The notes under the pieces were generated by a model. That model worked only from the letters and a program-made list of their open reading frames with translations, did no database searches and had not been told where the DNA came from. A stretch of 64,000 nucleotides of DNA, from NCBI GenBank assembly GCA_047602425.1, contig JASGHG010000001.1:3648001-3712000 (forward strand), read 5' to 3'. This DNA comes from Nibricoccus sp. (GTDB lineage Bacteria; Verrucomicrobiota; Verrucomicrobiia; Opitutales; Opitutaceae). Shown one piece after another: positions 14,704 through 62,027 of the stretch (the first letter of the stretch is position 1; each line of letters begins with the position of its first letter). A program made the position numbers and the translations under genes.

Positions 14704-15743
14704 GCGTGCTGATTGGCTGGAATCTGCGATGAGGAAAGTTTTTCGGCCACGATCGCGAACGCCTGTTTTTCAATGGCGTCCCGATGCAAGTACCAAGTAA
14801 TGAGGAATGTGGCGGCGAGCAAACTGGCCCCGACGATCACATGGGCGGTCGTGGTGTGCGGTTGACGCCCCGTCAGGACTACGGCGGCGCCGAGTGCGAT
14901 TTGAGCCACGAGGAGAACGATCAGCAGCACGGCGCCGTTTTTCATTTTGCGGGAAAGCCCTGCGGATCTCAGCAGCGCGGCTGAAAACCAAACAATGGCG
15001 ACCGCGAGAACCACAGCTGTGACGCGATGGGCGAAATGGATGCCTACGCGAAAATTCCACTCGGCGGGCAGCCAGCCGCCTTCCGGTGTGCTTTGTGGAA
15101 AAGACGGGATGGCGAGACCCGCGAAGCTGTGCCGCATGACGGCGGCGATGGCGAGTTGGAGCAAGAGCAGGGCGCAGCAGACGATTCCGAGAGTCCGCAA
15201 TGCCGGGGAGAAATTCTTTTTGTCGGCGGGGGCAGGTTCGACCCAGGACCGTGAGCAACCGGCAGCGATCGCCACGAGCGTACAGACGAAGATTTGCGCG
15301 AGACAGGCATGCGCCATGGCGAAAAGCCGGCCCACGCTGGTCTCGATCATTTCCACGTGCTGCTTTTCGAGCAGCACGCGCAGCCCGCCGACGAAGGCTT
15401 GCACGAAAATCAGGATCACGGCCACGGTCGCGGCGCGGCGCAGCCAACGACGTTCCTCGGTGCGCCAGACGGCCACAGCGATCGCGATGGTGATCATCGT
15501 CATCAATCCCGCGCTCAACCGGTGCGAGTGTTCCGCAAACATGGCGATGTTGCCGAGCCAGCCGGCCGGGTTGAGGGAACCATTGGACAGAGGCCAATCG
15601 GGGAAAACCATGCCCGCGCCAATGCTCGTCGTAAATGCGCCAAGCGTGACCAGCACGAACACCCAGGCGCTGCCCAACGTCGCAAACCAGGCTAGGCCGG
15701 GTTTGTATGAGCTGGTACGGTTTGACGCGGAAGCGGGGACCAT
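14700..15743 (-). CDS. ctaA: Heme A synthase (COX15/CtaA)
   Basis: GAGMVFPDWP, EHSHR, HACLAQ, HFAHR. Confidence 0.9.
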   Translation of the reverse strand: MVPASASNRTSSYKPGLAWFATLGSAWVFVLVTLGAFTTSIGAGMVFPDWPLSNGSLNPAGWLGNIAMFAEHSHRLSAGLMTMITIAIAVAVWRTEERRWLRRAATVAVILIFVQAFVGGLRVLLEKQHVEMIETSVGRLFAMAHACLAQIFVCTLVAIAAGCSRSWVEPAPADKKNFSPALRTLGIVCCALLLLQLAIAAVMRHSFAGLAIPSFPQSTPEGGWLPAEWNFRVGIHFAHRVTAVVLAVAIVWFSAALLRSAGLSRKMKNGAVLLIVLLVAQIALGAAVVLTGRQPHTTTAHVIVGASLLAATFLITWYLHRDAIEKQAFAIVAEKLSSSQIPANQHA

Positions 15744-15799
15744 GGGTTGCGAAACGAAGCGGTCTGCATACGATCCGCAAATTCCGAGGTCATTTTTCC

Positions 15800-16729
15800 A
15801 TGTCCAAACCCGTTGTTCGTAACAAAACTTATCTCAGGCTCACACTGCTAGTGAATCTTTTACTGGCGATCCTGCTGAGCCCGGGTTGTGCGAAGAAAAA
15901 TGACCAAGCCGCTGATTCGGCAAAAAGCGAACCGACGCAAAAACGCTATCCATTGACGGGCGAAGTGCTTGCCATCGACAATGCCGCCAAGACCCTTCGT
16001 GTGCGCCACGATGAAATCAAAGGACTTATGCCGGCCATGACCATGGACTTCGACGTTTCGGCGGGGGATCTGGCGATCGCGACTCCGGGCCGCCGAATTC
16101 GAGCCGAACTTGTGGAAATCGGCCAAGGGGAATTCAAATTGGAGAAAATCTGGCCGGCCGATGCGGCGGAAAAAGCCATCATCGACAGCGCGGCGAACGC
16201 CCTCGGTCAGGAAACAGTGATCCGGGGAAAAAAAGCCTACCGCGAAGTGGGCGAGCAGGTGCCGGAATTTGCGCTCTACGACCAAACCGGACGCGTGGTG
16301 AAAAGTGAGCGCTTTCGCGGCAAGCAGATCATGCTCAACTTCATTTTTACGCGATGCCAGGTCGCAAAAATGTGTCCGGCCGCCGTCGCGCGTTTTCAAC
16401 AATTGCAGCAACTTGCGCGCGATGCAGGGGTGGCGAACCTGGAGTTGATTTCGATTTCCCTCGATCCAGCCAACGACACACCCGGCGTGCTCAAGCAATA
16501 CGCCTTGGAGCGGCAAATCGATACGAGCAACTACACCTTTCTTACCGGCCCGGAAGCCTCGATCAAGAGCCTGCTCGCCCAATTCGGTGTGTTGGCCGAA
16601 TTTAAGGACAACATCCTGAACCACACCGCCACAACCTTGCTGATCGATGCGTCGGGTAAAATCGTGCACCGCGCGGACGGCAGCATGTGGGACGTGCAGG
16701 AATTTCTGGGTAAATTGAGAAAAACGTGA
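15800..16729 (+). CDS. SCO family lipoprotein with N-terminal CusF-like copper-binding domain
   Basis: Lipobox-like SPGC; HDEIKGLMPAMTMDF (CusF-like); FIFTRCQVAKMCP, ISLDP, NHT (SCO). Confidence 0.85.
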   Translation: MSKPVVRNKTYLRLTLLVNLLLAILLSPGCAKKNDQAADSAKSEPTQKRYPLTGEVLAIDNAAKTLRVRHDEIKGLMPAMTMDFDVSAGDLAIATPGRRIRAELVEIGQGEFKLEKIWPADAAEKAIIDSAANALGQETVIRGKKAYREVGEQVPEFALYDQTGRVVKSERFRGKQIMLNFIFTRCQVAKMCPAAVARFQQLQQLARDAGVANLELISISLDPANDTPGVLKQYALERQIDTSNYTFLTGPEASIKSLLAQFGVLAEFKDNILNHTATTLLIDASGKIVHRADGSMWDVQEFLGKLRKT

Positions 16730-17685
16730 TCGCTCCCGAGCCAGGCCCATACACCAGCGCGGCAAAATCCACCTCGCGAATCCACTGGCGGCAAGTCGGG
16801 TGGATTACGCTCGCGGCCATTGTTCTCTATATTGTGGTTCGGCATTTGCCAACGGGGACGAACCTGAGCCACATGGATTTTCGCCCGGGCGGAAGCAGCG
16901 TGGAATTTTGCGACCCGGCGAATCCCCAGTTCATGCCGGTGACGACCGTGCGCTCTCCGGTTGCCATGGTTTTTACCGGTGACGAAGTGTTCGCGGCGCG
17001 GTCGGCGCATCTTGCGCTCGCCATGAAAACGGCAACTGGAAAGCCGGTTGGCCCTGACGACTTGTTGGTCGTGCACACGCAGAAACTGCATTTGATGATC
17101 GTGGATCCAACGCTTACCGACTACCAGCACCTGCATCCGCTGGCGGGAAAGAAGCCCGGCGAATGGCTCGTGGAATTCACACCGAAACGAGCCGGACTTT
17201 ATCGCGCATTTGCCGATTTCACTCCTGCCGCAACCGCGCGCGGTCTTTATGCGAGCGCGGATATTTTAGTGAAGGACTCATCCGCTGTACCGCGGGCGAA
17301 TGACGAAACGCCGACGGTGGCCGGGCCTGACGGAAGTATTCTGCGTGAAGGATTTCGTTTCACTCTTCAACCGCGCGAAAATCCGATGCGAGCGGGGAAG
17401 GTGCTCGATCTTACGTTTTCGGTAAAGCGTGAAGACGGAGCGGCGGTGCCGCTTCAGACCATCATGGGAGCCTTCGCTCATTTAGTCGCCTTTGACCAGG
17501 AACGCGGAGGTTTTGCACACCTGCATCCCAATGAAATCGATCTTGCCCAAAAGCCCGATGCGGTGCGTCCGACACTGAGCTTTAAGGTGACAATCCCCAA
17601 GGCCGGGCGCTACGTTGTTTGGGCGCAAGTGAATCTCGCGGGACAGGATACGGCGGTGCCTTTTTGGCTGGACGTGCAGCCTTGA
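16726..17685 (+). CDS. Putative exported heavy-metal-binding protein
   Basis: N-terminal TM; duplicated His motifs LHLMIVD...YQHLHP and AHLVAF...FAHLHP; overlaps SCO gene. Confidence 0.6.
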   Translation: MIAPEPGPYTSAAKSTSRIHWRQVGWITLAAIVLYIVVRHLPTGTNLSHMDFRPGGSSVEFCDPANPQFMPVTTVRSPVAMVFTGDEVFAARSAHLALAMKTATGKPVGPDDLLVVHTQKLHLMIVDPTLTDYQHLHPLAGKKPGEWLVEFTPKRAGLYRAFADFTPAATARGLYASADILVKDSSAVPRANDETPTVAGPDGSILREGFRFTLQPRENPMRAGKVLDLTFSVKREDGAAVPLQTIMGAFAHLVAFDQERGGFAHLHPNEIDLAQKPDAVRPTLSFKVTIPKAGRYVVWAQVNLAGQDTAVPFWLDVQP

Positions 17686-54566: not shown

Positions 54567-54682
54567 GAAGCACTTGTCACAGGAGGGGCAGGACGTTGGC
54601 AAGCCGCGAAAACTAGGTTTTAAAAGGTCCTTTAGAATCCTTGACGCGGTCCGATTCAGCCTCAATTTCCCAACCTTCTGTT

Positions 54683-54756
54683 TGCCCGATGGTGTAATGG
54701 CAGCACCGGAGATTTTGGATCTCCTTGTCATGGTTCGAATCCATGTCGGGCAGCCA
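54683..54756 (+). tRNA. tRNA-Gln(UUG)
   Basis: Acceptor TGCCCGA/TCGGGCA, anticodon arm GGAGA-TT-TTG-GA-TCTCC, T arm GGTTCGAATCC, encoded CCA. Confidence 0.96.
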
Positions 54757-56002
54757 GCTTGGGGAGGCCAAAAACAGTGTTATCCCCCTCTGATATAGCC
54801 TTTTGTGCCAGTTCTACCAACTGAGTCAAAACAGCCCTAAAAGGCCCTTGCGCACAACTAGACACACAATCTGTGCGTGCAGCTGTGTGTACTTCAGGAG
54901 CCAGCACCCACGGCAACTTTGCCACCTCGGCATGCAATCCGAGTGCGGCAACATCCGTGTAAACATTAGCCGTCAACGACGGGTCCGAGTGACCGAGCAT
55001 TTCCTGTGCGGCACGCTGACCGACACCCGACTGAGCGCCCCACGTCTGAAAAGTTTTTCGAAATGCATGAAAATGTAACACGCGACCAGACGCGTCACGC
55101 CGCTCAATACCAGCCCTCGCCATATCCGCCTGCAACGCGTCGTCAGATGGAAACCGAGCAAACACACCTAGATCACGCCGCCACCTCGTCACCTCAGCCT
55201 CACAACACAACAACTTTGCCAACTCCGGATGCAACGGCACAGTCCGCTTGTCCTTGTCCTTCGTCGTGCTTGCCCGGAACACGACGCACGGAGCATCCCC
55301 AAGGTTAACATCATCCCATAGCAACGCACGCGCCTCATTCGTACGAGCTCCAGTGTATGCAAGAAACAAATACACAAGCCGACGATAGGCAGGAGCCACC
55401 TCACAGAGTTTCGCCAACTCCGCTTGAGTGAACGCACGCGACACCCGAACCGCCTTCCCTCGAGTATCCACCATATCTACACCCCTGAGAGGATTGACCG
55501 CCAAACGCCCAAGCCGAACCAGCCAATTGAAGAAAGCATTCACCGACACCTGAAATTCTTTCTTCGTTTTTGCCGCACACGTAAGCTTTGCCCGCCACGC
55601 CACAAACGAAGTAGGGGAGACATCCGCAAGACGCGCCCACCCCGTCTCCCCAATGACCCGCTCGATGCGCCGCACACTCTCGACCACATGCGCAGCAGCA
55701 AGACCCCGCCCGTTCAAATCCGCCTTGTATTCAGAAACCAATGACACCAGCGACGCCGCAGCAGCAAAACGAATTGCCTCAGGTTGCACGATGCCTTCCG
55801 CCTCACATTGCTTCGCCGTCACCAAATCACGAAGACGCTTTTCTGCTACCTTTTTGTTCGACGTGTACAGCGACACCGTCACCGGTCGGTCACCAGCTTG
55901 CAGCGCGTACCGCCCAGAATACGACCGCGACAAGATACGCCTACCGGCCTTTCTACGACTCTGTTTGAAGACATACTGAATCACGCACTCATATGAATGC
56001 AA
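54728..56002 (-). CDS. Tyrosine recombinase/integrase (prophage form; stop codon lies within the tRNA)
   Basis: TGARTNE, HAFRKT, LGHSD, NVYTD; ORF reads through att core (LAARHGFEP*); start TTG 56002 or GTG 55984. Confidence 0.95.
   Translation of the reverse strand: MHSYECVIQYVFKQSRRKAGRRILSRSYSGRYALQAGDRPVTVSLYTSNKKVAEKRLRDLVTAKQCEAEGIVQPEAIRFAAAASLVSLVSEYKADLNGRGLAAAHVVESVRRIERVIGETGWARLADVSPTSFVAWRAKLTCAAKTKKEFQVSVNAFFNWLVRLGRLAVNPLRGVDMVDTRGKAVRVSRAFTQAELAKLCEVAPAYRRLVYLFLAYTGARTNEARALLWDDVNLGDAPCVVFRASTTKDKDKRTVPLHPELAKLLCCEAEVTRWRRDLGVFARFPSDDALQADMARAGIERRDASGRVLHFHAFRKTFQTWGAQSGVGQRAAQEMLGHSDPSLTANVYTDVAALGLHAEVAKLPWVLAPEVHTAARTDCVSSCAQGPFRAVLTQLVELAQKAISEGDNTVFGLPKLAARHGFEP
54732..54757 (+). 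repeat. attL core (3' end of tRNA-Gln)
   Basis: GGTTCGAATCCATGTCGGGCAGCCAG, identical to 61637-61662. Confidence 0.95.
54851..54869 (+). promoter_or_regulatory. Putative integrase arm-type site (P' arm)
   Basis: CGCACAACTAGACACACAA, exact reverse complement of 61555-61573. Confidence 0.7.
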
Positions 56003-56010
56003 AAGAACTC

Positions 56011-56032
56011 ACAAAAGCAAGTAGATTTTTGT
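56011..56032. promoter_or_regulatory. Putative operator in int/regulator divergent gap
   Basis: ACAAAA-N10-TTTTGT inverted repeat in a ~43-bp AT-rich divergent intergenic region. Confidence 0.4.
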
Positions 56033-56045
56033 AACATCATAAAGT

Positions 56046-56270
56046 ATGAAATCTCGCGTGCGTTCTAAGCCGCAAATAGCCGCCTCTTTACCCAAGCACA
56101 TCGCGGAAGAAATTCAGCGTTTCAGCACTGCACTTGATATCACAAAAGGTGAATACCTAGCGCTAATCGCTCGCAAATGGTATGCCGACAACTGTCCCCC
56201 GGTTAGCGATGAAGAAAAAAGACTCAGGGAAACAGCCGACCACCCAAAGCAGGTAAAAAAGCCAGCTTAA
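56046..56270 (+). CDS. Small putative DNA-binding regulator (ribbon-helix-helix/CopG-like), candidate repressor
   Basis: QIAASLPKHIAEEIQRFSTALDITKGEYLALIARKW strand-helix-helix pattern; divergent from int. Confidence 0.6.
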   Translation: MKSRVRSKPQIAASLPKHIAEEIQRFSTALDITKGEYLALIARKWYADNCPPVSDEEKRLRETADHPKQVKKPA

Positions 56271-56304
56271 CACCCGGATGCTGGCAACGCCCCAAGCAAA
56301 CACC

Positions 56305-56802
56305 ATGCGCCATCTGCTCTCACTGCTCCTATTTGCAGCAGTATCACTGACGGCCAGCGCCCGACTTGGAGAAAATGAGCAAGAGCTTATAAAACGATTC
56401 GGGCAACCTCTGTCACAGACACCGGAAAAGTTTTTCGCGCAAGGAAAATTCATAACCATCGGTACCGCTCTAACATTTCAACAAGAATCATGGCGAATAA
56501 CAGCCGTTTTAACAGAAAACCGTTGCTCGAAAATCACCTACACCCACCCCGGAGACTGGACCGAAAATCAATTCACAACGACTCTCACAGCAAATTGCCA
56601 AGCATCGAAATGGACCGACACGTCAAGCACTGACCAAGGATTCCGAAAACTATCGCGCAATTGGAAACGCGCTGACGGAGGAACCGCCTCGTGGACAATG
56701 GCAGGGACCAGTTTGGTAATCACAAACCCAGCCTACAACAGAACCAAAGAAAAAGCTGAAGCAAAAGCCAAAGCCGAGACCTCACGCATACCCAAAATCT
56801 AG
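56305..56802 (+). CDS. Secreted/periplasmic phage cargo protein
   Basis: Signal peptide MRHLLSLLLFAAVSLTASA; co-oriented with regulator, opposite to virion genes. Confidence 0.7.
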   Translation: MRHLLSLLLFAAVSLTASARLGENEQELIKRFGQPLSQTPEKFFAQGKFITIGTALTFQQESWRITAVLTENRCSKITYTHPGDWTENQFTTTLTANCQASKWTDTSSTDQGFRKLSRNWKRADGGTASWTMAGTSLVITNPAYNRTKEKAEAKAKAETSRIPKI

Positions 56803-56806
56803 CAAC

Positions 56807-58132
56807 CTAACGCATAGAACTCGTTAGCGTTTCGGTGGTCTTCAGACGAGCAACGCCATCTACCACCGACCACGACCCCTCGTCCCGAGGCTTGTCGATC
56901 GCTTCGATTCTAGACATTTCCGTTCGCACAGGCATCTCCACACGTTCCGGATCCTTCGCTCGCTCCAAATAGACCCTCGTGCCGTCTACAACGGTCCCGG
57001 CTGCGTCTACACGCTGCAATTCCTTATCTCTATCCGTAACCGTACGACCGTCACTTAAAACAACCTGTACACGCCCCGCACGGATCAAATAACCACGAAC
57101 CAAAACCGGCTGGGGAAGGGGACGATTCGCAATATCCGAGGGCAAAGCGCTCGACGCAGCCGGCGTGTTGTTTGGTTTCAACTGCGCCAACTGGACCGAC
57201 GGCAGTCCCGTCACACTGTCCATTTGGACAGCGGGTCGGGCTGTCGGGTCTGTACCATTGCCAAGAGTAGGGGATGCCGTTGCGCTCGACGGCGCGCTCT
57301 TCTGAATTTGCTTGCCCAATAGCTTACCGCCAATCCATGGCGCAAACCAGGTCAAGGCACAAAGCAAAACCGCACCCGGTAAAACCAGAATAATCGGTAT
57401 GCCCGAGGCCCGCTTCCCTTTGTCCGCTTGCGATCCATGCACGCCAATCCCCTTCGCAGTGTCGTAACAAGACGCCGCGCCTTGCGTATCCAAATGATAG
57501 ATACGTTTTATAAATGGCTCAGAATTACGCGACGGCTCTTCGTTGTAATAACGCGCAACGAACCGACCACGACCTCTAAACATGCCAAACCGAGCTTGGT
57601 ACTCGTTACGGGAAATAATAAAATCCTCCGCCACAGATCGAAACTGTTTATCCAAATTCGAAGCCGCTTGCGTGATACACCACACGCGGTCGCTCAGCTT
57701 GCGATGTTGCGCCAGATAGATCAATGCCTCTGGACCAATTTCCGCCCACTTACGCGCGTTAAATTTCAACTGCGCTTCATCAATAACGTAAAAGACGCCT
57801 TGCGGGCAACCCTCAACACCCTCCATCACCTTTTCCGCTTCGACATCATCTAGTTTCTCAAGCGTTGAAAACTTTGGCACCGGCAAACGTTTCGGTCCAC
57901 GAACCAACCAAAACGACTGCACCTCATCACTACGGATCAGACAAACACGTTCAACCGTACGGAAATTTCGGCCGGGATACTTTTGTTGGAGGTATTCGTT
58001 AAGCCGTCCAACATCTAAAGGAAGGTTCGTAACGATGTTTCGATAGCCCTCCACGAGTTCCTTGATGATCTCCAAAAGAGCCAGGTACGACTTACCGCCA
58101 CCCGGTTTGCCCATGCCGATGTGAATACTCAT
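56807..58132 (-). CDS. Zot/pI-like morphogenesis ATPase
   Basis: Walker A GKPGGGKS, Walker B YVIDEAQ, QHRK, ITQ, TM after the ATPase domain; GGAGG RBS upstream. Confidence 0.93.
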   Translation of the reverse strand: MSIHIGMGKPGGGKSYLALLEIIKELVEGYRNIVTNLPLDVGRLNEYLQQKYPGRNFRTVERVCLIRSDEVQSFWLVRGPKRLPVPKFSTLEKLDDVEAEKVMEGVEGCPQGVFYVIDEAQLKFNARKWAEIGPEALIYLAQHRKLSDRVWCITQAASNLDKQFRSVAEDFIISRNEYQARFGMFRGRGRFVARYYNEEPSRNSEPFIKRIYHLDTQGAASCYDTAKGIGVHGSQADKGKRASGIPIILVLPGAVLLCALTWFAPWIGGKLLGKQIQKSAPSSATASPTLGNGTDPTARPAVQMDSVTGLPSVQLAQLKPNNTPAASSALPSDIANRPLPQPVLVRGYLIRAGRVQVVLSDGRTVTDRDKELQRVDAAGTVVDGTRVYLERAKDPERVEMPVRTEMSRIEAIDKPRDEGSWSVVDGVARLKTTETLTSSMR

Positions 58133-58135
58133 CGT

Positions 58136-58270
58136 TCACTCCTCCAACTTGTCAAAACGCTTTGCCCTCCTGATTGCCCAAACGTCGGCAATCAAAAACC
58201 CGAAAAGCGTACTAACCGAACCAACAAGCATCCAAAAAACAATACCCCAAATAGAATCAGCAATTATCAT
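58136..58270 (-). CDS. Small single-TM phage protein (minor coat candidate, 44 aa)
   Basis: Not in ORF track: MIIADSIWGIVFWMLVGSVSTLFGFLIADVWAIRRAKRFDKLEE. Confidence 0.7.
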   Translation of the reverse strand: MIIADSIWGIVFWMLVGSVSTLFGFLIADVWAIRRAKRFDKLEE

Positions 58271-58274
58271 AAAT

Positions 58275-58421
58275 TTATCTTTCGATGTTATCCGAACCAA
58301 CACGACGCACCCAACGAAGCCCTGTACGAGTCAAACGCACCAACGCTCCAAACATCATACCAAGGGCAAAAACTTTCGCCTCATCGGTAAGCGCCCATTC
58401 AGGAAGATTCTCAAAGTTCAT
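58275..58421 (-). CDS. Small single-TM phage protein (minor coat candidate, 48 aa)
   Basis: MNFENLPEWALTDEAKVFALGMMFGALVRLTRTGLRWVRRVGSDNIER; ATGA overlap with upstream gene. Confidence 0.7.
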   Translation of the reverse strand: MNFENLPEWALTDEAKVFALGMMFGALVRLTRTGLRWVRRVGSDNIER

Positions 58422-59752
58422 GGCACAATAAACCGAATTGTAGCAGCCGCAGCCGCGAAGATTGACGAAGCATAGAGATTCCATCCAAAGCGCGCCACGA
58501 GGGTCAACACAATCGTCGCAACCGGAAAAAGCTTATCCAACATATACAAGGCCCCCGCAGCCATTCCCGTAGTTGGATTCGTGCCCGCCGCCGCTATGAT
58601 CGCAGACAAACTAATATCTCCGGTCAACCAAGACAACAAAGCCAAAGTAAATGTAGTCACCGCCACCGTTATTGCCGAAGCAGCAACCAACGCCGTCGCT
58701 TGCGCGCCCGTACCACTGACTATCGGATTCCCCTTCGCTTGCGGCAAAACACTGATCCCTTGCGTCCAGTCCTTAACCTGCGCTGACGCCCAAATGCCAA
58801 AAACAATTATACACGCCCAAGCAGTGGCCGACCGGAACCATTCACAAATCCCAGCGAAACGTTCATTCTTAAACGGATCAGCATCGACCGTAGCCCCGCC
58901 CATGTTTGCCGGAAAAACTATCGCGAAGTTCGGCGCACCACCGCCAACAGTCGGCTTCACGGGCTGACTAACAGAAGGATAATGAGCCCTAGCCACCGAT
59001 GCCGCCGCAGCCCCTTTTCCCTCCATTTGACTAGTACCCTCTTCACCTTTCTTCTGCGCAGCCTGTACAGCTTCCCACAACGAGTCGCCACCTGTACCCG
59101 TACCCGAAGAACCAGACGACCCCGAAGAGCTTGACGACGAACTCCCACCCGAACTTGACGAAGACGAAGATGACGACGAACCGCCTTCACCTCCCCCTGA
59201 ACTTCCGCTTGAAGACGAGGATGACGACGACGATGAAGAAGACGATGACGACGACGAGGAAGAGGACGAAGAACTAGACGAAGACGAACTGCCTTCAGGC
59301 GATAGATAATCAGTATAATTGACCGAAACCCGCTCAGTAGGATTTAAGTTACTATACGTAAACGCATTAATCCGTAACTCCGCACCTACCTGGTATTCGC
59401 TATCAAACAATATATCGTAATATCCGCTGGCTTGCTGCTCATACACTAAAGCGACCTCAAGACCATTCGCTTTCTTTATATATATCGAATAATACTGTCC
59501 CGGCCAACCCGGGGTACCCGAGTTTGTGCTCACCGCTGTAAATAACCGAGCCCCAGCCCCATTATTCGTCAACTCTGTGTGAGTCGTAACCGTAAATGTA
59601 ATATCCCTAATTTCATAGCCAGAACCATTCCAATAGTTAAACGGCACGACATACGAACCGCCACCACCAAAGACCTTCAAACATCCAAAGGCGACAAAAT
59701 AAAAGAAGACAACCAACAACCTGCTACAAAAATTAGGAATAGCATATTTCAT
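58418..59752 (-). CDS. pIII-like attachment protein with poly-Ser/Gly linker and multi-TM (pVI-like) C-terminus
   Basis: Signal peptide, beta-rich domain, long Ser/Gly tract, TM, extra hydrophobic helices ending TIRFIVP. Confidence 0.8.
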   Translation of the reverse strand: MKYAIPNFCSRLLVVFFYFVAFGCLKVFGGGGSYVVPFNYWNGSGYEIRDITFTVTTHTELTNNGAGARLFTAVSTNSGTPGWPGQYYSIYIKKANGLEVALVYEQQASGYYDILFDSEYQVGAELRINAFTYSNLNPTERVSVNYTDYLSPEGSSSSSSSSSSSSSSSSSSSSSSSSSSSSGSSGGGEGGSSSSSSSSSSGGSSSSSSSGSSGSSGTGTGGDSLWEAVQAAQKKGEEGTSQMEGKGAAAASVARAHYPSVSQPVKPTVGGGAPNFAIVFPANMGGATVDADPFKNERFAGICEWFRSATAWACIIVFGIWASAQVKDWTQGISVLPQAKGNPIVSGTGAQATALVAASAITVAVTTFTLALLSWLTGDISLSAIIAAAGTNPTTGMAAGALYMLDKLFPVATIVLTLVARFGWNLYASSIFAAAAATIRFIVP

Positions 59753-59767
59753 GGGATTTAAAGGTTT

Positions 59768-59793
59768 AAAGCCGGGGTTTGCAGTCCCCCGGC
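59768..59793 (-). terminator. Terminator after major coat gene
   Basis: GCCGGGG/CCCCGGC stem followed by TTT on the minus strand. Confidence 0.65.
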
Positions 59794-59802
59794 ATAGCAT
59801 CG

Positions 59803-59919
59803 TTAGATGCGCTTGAGCCACTTGCGACCGAGGAAAAACCCGGTCACAGAGACGGCCAGAACAACGATAACGCCAAACAGCGTTGTTGCGGATGCAACCA
59901 TTGCAGTAATCTCAGTCAT
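59803..59919 (-). CDS. Major coat protein (pVIII-like), 38 aa
   Basis: Not in ORF track: MTEITAMVASATTLFGVIVVLAVSVTGFFLGRKWLKRI; acidic N-terminus, TM, basic C-terminus, directly upstream of pIII-like gene. Confidence 0.8.
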   Translation of the reverse strand: MTEITAMVASATTLFGVIVVLAVSVTGFFLGRKWLKRI

Positions 59920-59936
59920 GTTTATGTTTCCCGGTT

Positions 59937-60065
59937 TTATTTTGTTATTTTTCGCCGCCACAACCAGACGCGGAAACTAATTCCGGCAGCGAATAGCACC
60001 CATAGTGGCCAACAGGTCAGCAAAAACTGCCGAACCATTTGCGATACTATAGACGCAAAAATCAT
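59937..60065 (-). CDS. Small TM phage protein (pVII/pIX-like candidate, 42 aa)
   Basis: MIFASIVSQMVRQFLLTCWPLWVLFAAGISFRVWLWRRKITK. Confidence 0.6.
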   Translation of the reverse strand: MIFASIVSQMVRQFLLTCWPLWVLFAAGISFRVWLWRRKITK

Positions 60066-60067
60066 AC

Positions 60068-60304
60068 TCAGGTCAGAACCAACTCCCCCTGACCCTCCAA
60101 GAGCATCAAAGCCCCGTTTAAACGCGATATCTCCCCAGTAAGCGCAGTGATAGCCTGCTTTTCCGTAGACTCCCAAATTTCGGCATTTAAACAACTGCTA
60201 GGGGTAAGCAGCAGACGCTCACAACGCATCGTCTTTGCTTTTTCGAGATCAGCGATACGACGACGAATAGCACCAATTTTATTAGCTCTCTGGAATCGAT
60301 TCAT
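60068..60304 (-). CDS. Hypothetical phage protein (78 aa)
   Basis: MNRFQRANKIGAIRRRIADLEK...; packed against the next ORF. Confidence 0.55.
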   Translation of the reverse strand: MNRFQRANKIGAIRRRIADLEKAKTMRCERLLLTPSSCLNAEIWESTEKQAITALTGEISRLNGALMLLEGQGELVLT

Positions 60305-60334
60305 AACGACAGTTAGTTTTGTTTTGAACAAGGA

Positions 60335-60381
60335 AAGGCCGCGCATGCCGTCCGCTAGCGCGTCCGGCATGCGCGGGCCTT
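60335..60381. other. Strong hairpin: candidate replication origin or packaging signal
   Basis: AAGGCC-GCGCATGCCG...CGGCATGCGC-G-GGCCTT with inner CGCTAGCG, in a gap between phage genes. Confidence 0.55.
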
Positions 60382-60686
60382 TATTTCTTCGATACTTCTG
60401 GACGCTCCAATTTGACATCGAGAGACAGAAGGCCGTTTGCCTTGAATCCCGGAACGACTTGCGCGACGACATCTTCGCCAGAGCGAAAGAGCAGGGGCAT
60501 TTCACCCTTTGCTTGATCGACTGACTGAGTGAGGTTGACGAAGGTCTCACCAGCGAGAACCTTGCCACGAACCATTTGATAGGCGCGACCCTTTGCAGAG
60601 ACGCCACCGATCATTTCGAAATCGCCAACCGCTTTACCGATCAGGAAGACGCCGGTTGGAAGTCCGGCAGGTAGTTTGATAGCCAT
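60381..60686 (-). CDS. Putative ssDNA-binding protein (pV-like)
   Basis: 101 aa, beta-rich, SAKGRAYQM loop, directly downstream of rep. Confidence 0.65.
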   Translation of the reverse strand: MAIKLPAGLPTGVFLIGKAVGDFEMIGGVSAKGRAYQMVRGKVLAGETFVNLTQSVDQAKGEMPLLFRSGEDVVAQVVPGFKANGLLSLDVKLERPEVSKK

Positions 60687-61498
60687 GTTTGTACTTTCGT
60701 TTCTATTTTATTGCGGTCGATTTTGAGGACATCCGCCCCGAGACCGTGCCGGAGCAGAAGTTGTGAAAACTCCACAAGTAACGCACCCCACGAATCCTGA
60801 CGGATTACAAAGAGCTGATGACGTTTTGAGCCGTCATCCAAAGTGGTCCGACCGACGACAAGCTTTGACCATTTCTGAATTCTCTCCCCGATTGTATCGG
60901 ATTTCCCGATACGTTCGTTTTGTGTGTCGCTGGACAGGTCATCACCAGCTTGGCGGGGGGACGCCTTTTCTTCTTTCTTTAGCTCATCGCCGGTCGAAGA
61001 GGGGAAGAATCCCATTGAGGTCTGAAAGAGCCTCATCTGGCTGCGATTGAGAACCCAATCGGGCAGATTTTCCGCAGCCTTGGAAACGTACTTAAAAAGG
61101 TAATCAAAGCGGGCATCTGTCACACCCTTGATTTCTGTCCGTCCCTTCGCCCACCGGTTGTGAATGTCTTCAGCTTCGATAGGACGCTTGTAGTCAACTA
61201 ACAGATGCCAGTGAGGCCACACCTTGCCGTTTTCATCCGGCTCATGGAACTCCAGTTTCCAACACCAACGCTTGATGCTGTAATCCTCGCGCAACCGGTC
61301 GATAAAATGCCGCATAGACCGTTTTCCGGCTTCATATGCAGCCTCTGGATCAGGAAACCGCTCACGGTCTAGCGTGAGGGTTATAAAACGCCAATTGCGC
61401 AGATTGTCCGGAAAACCACGGCGCACTAGCTGGCGAATCTTCGCTAGCGCCCCCAACTCCGTCCAAAAGCCCGGAACAACGTATGGAGAAATCGTCAT
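60641..61498 (-). CDS. HUH rolling-circle replication initiator
   Basis: Motif I FITLT, II WPHWHLL, III YLFKYVSK; GGAGG RBS. Confidence 0.9.
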   Translation of the reverse strand: MTISPYVVPGFWTELGALAKIRQLVRRGFPDNLRNWRFITLTLDRERFPDPEAAYEAGKRSMRHFIDRLREDYSIKRWCWKLEFHEPDENGKVWPHWHLLVDYKRPIEAEDIHNRWAKGRTEIKGVTDARFDYLFKYVSKAAENLPDWVLNRSQMRLFQTSMGFFPSSTGDELKKEEKASPRQAGDDLSSDTQNERIGKSDTIGERIQKWSKLVVGRTTLDDGSKRHQLFVIRQDSWGALLVEFSQLLLRHGLGADVLKIDRNKIETKVQTWLSNYLPDFQPASS

Positions 61499-61554
61499 TT
61501 AACGCCCTCCACATCCGTCAAAGTTCGCCAAACAACCGCCAAAACTAAACGCGT

Positions 61555-61573
61555 TTGTGTGTCTAGTTGTGCG
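61555..61573 (-). promoter_or_regulatory. Putative integrase arm-type site (P arm)
   Basis: TTGTGTGTCTAGTTGTGCG, inverted copy of 54851-54869. Confidence 0.7.
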
Positions 61574-61636
61574 TAATACTCACCAGCCCAATCCTTAAGG
61601 CATGACTCGAAATCCTTTACCACCCCACTGAAACAA

Positions 61637-61662
61637 GGTTCGAATCCATGTCGGGCAGCCAG
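61637..61662 (+). repeat. attR core (duplicated tRNA-Gln 3' end)
   Basis: GGTTCGAATCCATGTCGGGCAGCCAG. Confidence 0.95.
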
Positions 61663-61835
61663 TTTGGCTATTCAGCCCATGGTGGAGGGCGGTTTTCCGG
61701 TGATTTTGATCAAAATGTAAGACACTCGTAACGTGGCGGCTCTTGTGCAGGGAGATTGGCCCGGTTATAGCTAGCGGTGTTGGGACAGTTCACCGTACTT
61801 AGCCAACGCTCAACCGAAAGGAGAAAGCAGCCGCC

Positions 61836-62027
61836 ATGATCAACCTCGAAGCAATCAGGGAAAAAATCGGCTCGGCAACCACTGTTGAGGAGTCGAAACA
61901 AATCGCCCGCTACCTGCTCGGCTATATCAGCGCCATGAACGACGATGTGGAGCCCGATCACGTCAACGGAAATTGGGAGGATCTCACGTTTCGTCTTCCG
62001 ACCGATCCGCTGCGTTTCCGGCAATAG
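61836..62027 (+). CDS. Small hypothetical protein
   Basis: 63 aa with AAGGAG upstream. Confidence 0.4.
   Translation: MINLEAIREKIGSATTVEESKQIARYLLGYISAMNDDVEPDHVNGNWEDLTFRLPTDPLRFRQ

Follow-up and report, generated by a model that had tools for sequence, protein, structure and literature searches.

Excision as a candidate switch for the replication initiator of a filamentous prophage in Nibricoccus whose attachment site lies inside its integrase gene

The window analyzed here is a stretch of 64,000 nucleotides from Nibricoccus sp. (Verrucomicrobiota, Opitutaceae; GenBank assembly GCA_047602425.1, contig JASGHG010000001.1, forward-strand positions 3,648,001 to 3,712,000; coordinates below count from its first letter), and it carries an integrated filamentous phage whose attachment site is embedded in its own tyrosine integrase gene (Table 1). 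The element is present in the host genome in a single copy and is bounded by two exact 26-bp cores, whose offset gives a circle of 6,905 bp. In the prophage the integrase gene (int) runs through the attL core and stops at a TGA (54730-54728) inside the host tRNA-Gln gene, 4 nt beyond the core. Joining the two ends in silico keeps the frame open and extends the integrase (Int) by 46 amino acids (aa), to a TGA (61497-61495) that overlaps the ATG (61498) of rep, the gene for a rolling-circle replication initiator. The original prediction, made from the letters of this DNA, had described this arrangement, and joining by coordinates confirms it: attP lies inside int, the 46 residues and the new stop are as predicted, the prophage form of Int does end in the tRNA and an in-frame host-side stop is found near attR (TGA 61674-61672). 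One detail needs amending, namely the start of int: the TTG at 56002 that had been proposed is indeed in frame and yields 424 aa in the prophage and 470 aa in the circle, but the N-termini of homologues in the integrase alignment make the GTG at 55984 the more likely start, with 418 aa in the prophage and 464 aa when joined, a gain of 46 aa either way.

In terms of its protein architecture, Int combines an N-terminal β-sheet/helix domain of the arm-binding type with core-binding and catalytic domains and a flexible linker that passes over the att site, as judged from the alignment and a structure model. The catalytic signature R-K-H-R-H-Y is invariant in the integrase alignment with every position upstream of the core, and the PF00589 match ends at residue 352 of 424; the prophage form therefore retains the catalytic domain, and the claim that both forms keep all the catalytic motifs holds. 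The helix predicted just before the core is likewise part of both forms, and is also present in the close relatives of the filamentous clade discussed below.

Table 1. Features of the prophage and its borders, in window coordinates
Feature	Position	Strand	Basis or remark
Promoter-like site of host tRNA-Gln, pointing into the prophage, antisense to int	54641..54668	+	14.3 bits, best of scan; in training set
tRNA-Gln(TTG), integration target, restored at attL	54683..54756	+	ARAGORN
Tyrosine integrase, prophage form	54728..55984	-	PF00589 E 2e-20; phrog_1 E 5e-42
attL core, 26 bp, T-loop to tRNA 3' end, within int frame	54732..54757		exact repeat of 61637-61662
Predicted amphipathic Int helix, residues 381-400, just before core	54785..54844	-	model, pLDDT (predicted local distance difference test) ~67
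Int-side arm-type repeats, two pairs, ~11-12 bp period, opposite orientations	54848..54889		aligned in relatives; predicted Int arm sites
int/regulator gap, 61 bp, presumed control region	55985..56045		same divergent layout in 8 other elements
RHH-like (ribbon-helix-helix) regulator, 74 aa, probable repressor	56046..56270	+	conserved in relatives
Accessory protein, 174 aa, hydrophobic N-terminus, probably exported (predicted)	56278..56802	+	open reading frame (ORF), hydropathy
pI-like morphogenesis ATPase, Zot family	56807..58132	-	PF05707 E 4.6e-12; phrog_197, phrog_1675
Hydrophobic ORF, 55 aa	58136..58303	-	hydropathy 2.16
pIII-like adsorption protein, Ser/Gly-rich linker	58418..59752	-	name from position and make-up
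Terminator-like hairpin after major coat gene	59771..59793	-	-16.3 kcal/mol, z -3.1
Major-coat-like protein, 38 aa from ATG 59919 (frame open from 59961)	59803..59919	-	hydropathy 2.32, one segment
Minor-coat-like hydrophobic ORF, 42 aa	59937..60065	-	hydropathy 1.58; name inferred
ORF, 78 aa	60068..60304	-	no Pfam or PHROG match
Very stable hairpin between ssb-like and virion genes	60334..60381		-45.3 kcal/mol, z -7.8
Single-stranded-DNA-binding-like (ssb-like) protein, 101 aa	60381..60686	-	name from position and size
rep, rolling-circle replication initiator, 285 aa	60641..61498	-	PF23343 E 1.9e-12; phrog_3584
46-codon Int tail left at attR, in int frame only in circle; stop overlaps rep start	61495..61635	-	
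Arm-type repeat pair inside tail; best conserved tail part among close relatives	61555..61576		
attR core, displaced tRNA 3' fragment, 26 bp	61637..61662		exact repeat of attL core
Host-side in-frame stop (TGA) upstream of tail	61672..61674	-	

Flanking attP is a 22-bp inverted repeat pair, with one copy in int (54848-54869) and the other in the stub left at attR (61555-61576). These repeats, which the original prediction had not mentioned, are probably arm-type sites, which Int would be expected to bind. The unoccupied tRNA sites of three genomes of the same genus differ in sequence directly after the tRNA, and hence the flanks of attB can be checked by gene neighborhood only.

Taken alone, the open stub in this prophage is just modestly beyond what chance would give, as an open stretch of 46 codons arises in about 5% of base shuffles (0.048 and 0.046); thus, it is the comparative counts that carry the weight. 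Relatives were gathered by similarity to rep and int, not to the tail, and comprise 185 loci: 80 regions came from 401 genomes of the order and 104 loci were drawn from three collections, with the window completing the set. The 143 int matches among them were narrowed to 53 with a located attR, to 47 upon removal of copies above 90% identity and finally to 42. The last filter removed L088 and L107, in which int ends before the core and which are the two true exceptions to the geometry, along with L127, L205 and L210, whose frames are broken; L083 (13-bp core) and L075 (partial int) were kept despite being doubtful, and both are among the misses. In the redundant set, 105 of the 143 int matches have a convergent tRNA or tmRNA gene, and all but three of these (102/105) read at least 20 nt into it. 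The window integrase is, by its nested position in the resulting tree, a member of a family of elements in the Planctomycetes–Verrucomicrobia–Chlamydiae (PVC) superphylum that target tRNA 3'-ends and have attP in the 3' part of int; its named relatives are mostly from Opitutaceae within Verrucomicrobiota.

In 41 of these 42 elements, the first 30 codons beyond attP are free of stops in the int frame, as against 9 and 7 for the other two frames, and the int frame is the longest of the three in 38. In 34/42 elements the stop codon of this frame overlaps an ORF start (counting ORFs of at least 40 aa), whereas the other frames do so in 6/84 cases, and a Shine-Dalgarno (SD)-like word precedes 26 of 35 overlapped starts; when scanned, the gene coupled to the tail was a PF23343 Rep in 13/34. 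The original prediction had staked itself on related elements keeping both the open stub and the start–stop overlap, and they do. Further, the targets span 12 tRNA types and tmRNA (four elements lack an assigned target), the core is crossed in all three reading phases (29, 7 and 5 elements, with one unclear), and in eight neighboring pairs of sister integrases on the tree the phase differs with the tail still in frame. An accident peculiar to this prophage would fit the shuffles just mentioned, but is hardly credible in the face of the frame comparisons and the phase switches. On this comparative sequence evidence, we hold that the open frame and the stop–start overlap are selected.

The joined form also occurs naturally among database proteins, which may stem from circles or from tandem junctions. 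P0002 is a natural Int of 418 aa with int sequence, a core-derived peptide and a tail in one chain, showing 52% identity to the Int of L099 and 79% to the tail left at the L099 attR; P0003 and P0005 are likewise built of int, core peptide and tail. A plasmid search with P0002 at E 1e-15 returned no match; among viral contigs, single-protein scans recovered no locus and an alignment-based scan one distant locus.

Several individual loci show further variations on this theme. L076 is a tandem case, in which the Int at 15371-16867 carries a tail with a partial att-derived peptide and a second int lies in tandem; tail-bearing Int frames also occur at L079:1714-2970, without any att-derived peptide, and at L203:1-993, with a partial one. 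L017/L215 was considered as a natural joined integrase and rejected, as there a host frame enters the attR stub and the int gene lies at another place of the contig. In a genome of the same genus (G219), the same tRNA-Gln holds a 2,276-bp element (L039:9801-11825) whose rep and int form a single fused frame of 674 aa, the start of which is overlapped by an attR tail of 85 codons; it is probably the remnant of an internal deletion, or else a minimal element. At the attR of L054, whose int is broken, tail and rep share one frame.

The stubs might instead be genes in their own right, expressed from the prophage and encoding products such as a trans-acting directionality factor. An in-frame start codon is present in or near the core on 28/42 attR sides, and such stubs are annotated as hypothetical proteins of 30-100 aa: 162 short database proteins match a profile of the family tails, most with that annotation. 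Nevertheless, these start codons are a by-product of the antisense reading of the tRNA end, an SD-like word precedes them in just 6/42, the window lacks any in-frame start between the host-side TGA (61674-61672) and the end of the attR core, and the naturally fused forms exist. A tRNA-antisense-like peptide is seen near the start in 46 of 120 listed tail-matching proteins (the best 120 of the 162, by a loose pattern). We consider independent expression very improbable and the attR stubs as probably not independent genes.

The question then arises as to what is under selection, the tail as a protein domain or the junction that it spans. In the wider family there is a case for the former: 26/42 elements have a conserved tail motif of the form W-x-x-L...R-x-A-I-L-like with two helices (these same 26 trained the profile, so that their count is by construction), and in a model of a natural full-length Int with the motif the tail forms two helices at residues 383-413 with pLDDT >90. 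Such a domain would make integration an enzyme switch, in which the long form integrates efficiently or differs in stability, and the short form is poor or prone to excise, replacing an excisionase. The published precedent is phage Mx8, where exchange of the 3'-end alters Int activity according to a review (PMC6070905). The family offers further support in the form of tails in which the proportion of nonsynonymous differences (pN) is well below that of synonymous differences (pS), at 0.16 versus 0.68 for L103/L108, and of the 162 short proteins that match the motif. Moreover, no excisionase was evident, as the original prediction had remarked: the small ORFs scanned gave no family match in Pfam or PHROG, a diverged one being possible. 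Against the enzyme switch, lambda-like systems with arm sites normally use a directionality factor; the arm-type repeats and the arm-binding-type fold here suggest such a system, and a diverged directionality factor might be found among the small ORFs.

For the filamentous phage itself, this interpretation fares less well. Against the family tail profile, the window tail reaches -0.7 bits, a value within the spread given by 1,000 shuffles, which led us to reject it as a diverged copy of the motif; the 16 tails that were not used in training all score 1.6 bits or less. It has no Pfam or PHROG match either, and 20 tails run against Pfam gave no credible family (best E 0.04, one member each). A fold search with the L079 model retrieved general tyrosine recombinases only (Brujita, lambda and Tn1549) and nothing for the tail; a complex prediction for two copies of a family tail, at a score of 0.37 against a mark of 0.42, speaks neither for nor against. 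The loss of the motif extends to the clade: the other eight filamentous members have tails without it that retain the open frame and the coupling, and on the tree the nine pI-bearing members group with four close relatives to one side of a branch (support 94/71, not starred; midpoint root), all without it. Tail length in this clade ranges from 30 to 147 aa, and the ATGA/GTGA overlap is present in 9/9 pI-bearing members and 12/13 of the clade. Conservation within these tails is highest at the residues encoded by the arm-type DNA repeat, after which comes a hydrophobic stretch. On the prophage side, the host-derived Int ends vary from 0 to 85 aa without a common tag. Hence, a role of the tail swap in setting directionality is plausible for the motif-bearing relatives and weak here; as an account of the present phage it is possible but doubtful, and it can hold together with the reading that we prefer. 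Since the tail sequence is mostly free in the filamentous lineage, it is the coupling, rather than a tail domain, that seems to be selected there.

We accordingly favor excision as a switch for rep, operating through the attP inside int, with the coupling under selection rather than a tail domain, and assign this reading a probability of about 0.6. The sequence comparison gives good support for rep being coupled to excision, while we infer the position of the promoter, the silence of rep in the prophage and any effect on the virion genes. To elaborate, in the circle a single frame leads from int via the att core into the tail, with its stop overlapping the start of rep, and the gap between int and the divergent regulator would be the single control region heading the early operon. 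Integration splits this unit: int keeps its catalytic domain and ends in tRNA antisense sequence, and the tail and rep would be left at attR without an upstream promoter and without ribosomes arriving from int. Excision would place rep, and with it ssb, under the RHH-controlled int promoter and couple the translation of rep to that of the tail. The rolling-circle initiator would then be made only once the DNA is circular, and the chromosome would be spared being nicked and unwound at the insertion. As long as it sits in the chromosome, a rolling-circle element has to hold its initiator off, and an attP lying between promoter and rep within a translated frame would solve this without extra proteins.

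Certain aspects of the regulatory sequence fit this reading. Nine elements, the window among them, have the regulator divergent from int, and TTGC/TGCA motifs recur upstream of int in relatives and were not noticed near rep, both by eye. Alternatively, int might overlap attP merely to save space, the frame being open to avoid a premature stop and polarity, with rep having its own RHH-repressed promoter. Small phage genomes commonly overlap genes, the tail length is very variable in the clade, rep has its own SD sequence and a weak promoter-like site of 8.8 bits lies in the tail at 61549-61521. Yet sites of at least 9 bits occur in just 2/39 tails, the regulator sits at the far end beside int in the nine elements noted above, and an overlap at the tail stop implies translation of the tail, which occurs only from int in the circle. 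We thus consider compaction alone unlikely.

Other observations count against the switch that we prefer. The elements are kin and the counts are not independent events, but a switch of phase requires matching changes to either side of the core. In a scan of 54600-61900 with a promoter matrix built from the upstream regions of 43 host tRNAs, no convincing promoter was found in the int/regulator gap (6.7 bits) or in the stub (8.8 bits), as against a 90th percentile of 9.65 in random 200-nt windows. Over 39 elements its median scores (6.3 upstream of int, 5.0 in tails and 4.0 inside int) do not discriminate. L160 lacks a match to the divergent regulator, and small ORFs intervene between tail and rep in 6/9 filamentous members. 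The GGAGG of rep, correctly pointed out in the original prediction, lies at 61510-61506, and the coupling could consequently be dispensable for rep translation wherever the mRNA is present. Lastly, although pN is below pS in all 16 tail pairs (e.g., 0.23 versus 0.59 for L039/L127, and 0.35 versus 0.51 for the window and L039, over an alignment of just 17 codons), some pairs have ratios close to 1 (0.30/0.36 and 0.36/0.40), and the ratios are biased low because local alignments favor conserved stretches. A scan for consensus promoters found 3 sites against 5.4 expected.

The original prediction went further, in having integration decapitate a contiguous int-rep-ssb-coat-pIII-pI operon. The genes are indeed co-oriented, and the conserved gene order and the coupling fit a decapitation; however, the silencing is inferred, with no promoter found, and two internal hairpins make one transcript reaching pI only a possibility. 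These hairpins, one after ssb and a terminator-like one after the coat gene, make it possible that the virion genes have separate control, and, together with possible internal promoters, they leave the silencing of the virion genes less certain than that of rep. The former hairpin has a comparable counterpart (-37 to -53 kcal/mol) in 9/9 filamentous members, and it is a candidate origin or packaging signal; the counterpart follows ssb in seven of them and immediately precedes an ORF of 320 aa in L117 and L153, both of which lack the Rep type of the window.

At the other border, transcripts of the host tRNA may run antisense into int, as the phage side of the tRNA (54757-54850) holds no good terminator on the tRNA strand (best -4.9 kcal/mol); no clear terminator was found on the host side of the window either, and across 40 elements a terminator of -8 kcal/mol or better follows the tRNA on the phage side in 10 and on the host side in 17. 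Combining these strands, recombination could be the main lysogeny switch of the filamentous lineage, with attP rewriting the Int C-terminus in place of an excisionase and gating both transcription and translation of rep, and tRNA read-through damping int; we put this forward tentatively and think it rather improbable in its entirety. If true, hundreds of hypothetical proteins of 30-100 aa lying by tRNA fragments in PVC genomes would be cut-off Int tails.

The principle has precedents. In Mx8 and Mx9 of Myxococcus xanthus, the attP lies inside a tyrosine int, and integration supplies a new 3'-end without inactivating the enzyme (PMC6070905, PMC4383910, in their accessible parts). This is the same geometry as here, with attP in the coding sequence, a new 3'-end being written by integration and the catalytic domain being kept; the Mx8 genome, however, is 49.5 kb, and we found no coupling to a downstream replication gene reported in those parts. 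When 50,697 phage records were searched by tblastn, the 72 matches were all weak, with none covering more than 80% of the query, and Mx8 was absent among the best 15 of the 72. Celli and Trieu-Cuot (1998, cited in PMC12084037) are said to have described how the integration of Tn916 separates genes from their upstream promoter and the circle rejoins them, a joint crossed reportedly by transcription only; here the reading frame also crosses the joint, and the element is a phage. The present system works like Mx8 in its geometry and probably like Tn916 in its expression.

Other systems are more distant. The DsiB serine integrase of Dehalococcoides ssrA islands overlaps attL/attP with its 3'-end and is, as its authors suggest, perhaps fully functional only on the circle; it differs in being a serine recombinase, and the sections available neither analyze its tail nor describe coupling to rep (PMC3146451). 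In the Ralstonia inovirus phiRSS0 (PMC3816273) and mycobacteriophage BPs (PMC9262239), an internal attP cuts the 3'-end of a gene upon integration, but, as far as the excerpts consulted go, that gene is the repressor, phiRSS0 employs host XerCD at dif and BPs relies on ssrA-like tags and lacks arm sites. In the window, by contrast, the regulator (56046-56270) lies 1.3 kb from attL, by eye neither Int end is LAA-like and arm-type repeats occur on both sides of attP. Archaeal integrases of the SSV1 type have the att site inside int such that integration splits the enzyme into two inactive parts, the C-terminal of which holds the catalytic domain (PMC8371274, in part); here only a non-catalytic tail of 46 aa is removed, and the prophage Int keeps the whole catalytic domain. 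Thus, among the precedents named in the original prediction, Mx8 is apt, and SSV1 and BPs differ in their defining features. Pseudomonas Pf phages are inoviruses with their own tyrosine integrase and attB in tRNA or tmRNA 3'-ends, but have an excisionase and accessory genes between the core genes and the att sites, and no attP inside int is described in the accessible text (PMC7549136).

With respect to the wider PVC family, the geometry is the same, and a Rep often lies directly behind the tail; the two-helix motif is absent here. The window element stands out in that family as a filamentous phage, belonging to a clade that lost the helical tail motif and kept the open frame and the overlap. 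In the open-access main texts covered, we found no description of this integrase family or of an inovirus with attP in int, although such prophages may be among those in the supplements of Roux et al. 2019; the accessible part of PMC12884075 held nothing relevant. The principle is already published, and the present analysis adds a filamentous phage lineage that carries this module, with a sign that the coupling has outlived a conserved tail. At 6.9 kb, the phage is a compact test system, and comparing motif-bearing with motif-less filamentous members would let the enzyme switch and the expression coupling be tested apart. In practical terms, annotated prophage-form integrases of this family differ in sequence from the circle form, which matters when they are cloned as tools.

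The remaining gene content identifies the type of phage. The sections available of Roux et al. 2019 (PMC6813254) characterize inoviruses by a Zot-like pI ATPase with a transmembrane segment, short structural genes with one transmembrane segment, an initiator and att repeats of at least 10 bp in a tRNA. In the window, the pI-like ATPase is nearest to Zot and has one hydrophobic segment (hydropathy 2.35 at residue 245; all hydropathy values are for 19-residue windows), the 38-, 55- and 42-aa ORFs are the short one-segment structural genes (all without family matches), and a PF23343 initiator accompanies the 26-bp core in the tRNA. By these sequence criteria, the element is an inovirus-like prophage. 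The 74-aa regulator has no match in Pfam or PHROG, its assignment being based on ESM Atlas feature matches (0.94-0.95) and structure rows to CopG/RHH clusters. The ssb-like protein (54% identical to a homologue behind rep in L031) and the pIII-like protein (43-46% homologues in L112 and L137) are likewise without family matches in Pfam and PHROG; the accessory protein has a 50% homologue in L137, and the major-coat-like protein has homologues of 38-39 aa in L112 and L137. The pIII-like gene includes a long Ser/Gly low-complexity linker (59100-59290), and the major-coat-like gene has tandem paralogues, three in L137 (2581-3144 from attR) and two in L112 (2110-2359 from attR).

Homologues of rep were found in 37 of the 401 genomes of the order, with its own genome counted. 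At L043-L046, L051, L056, L058-L060, L062-L064 and L066-L068, and at L032, L036, L040 and L069, the same Rep family occurs with a different integrase class, whose repeats are tRNA 5' halves, and with AT-rich repeats of dif-like appearance. Elsewhere in the host genome (G000:C1), two near-duplicate tRNA arrays of 16 and 22 genes lie at 2388522-2391778 and 2425174-2431080, about 35 kb apart.

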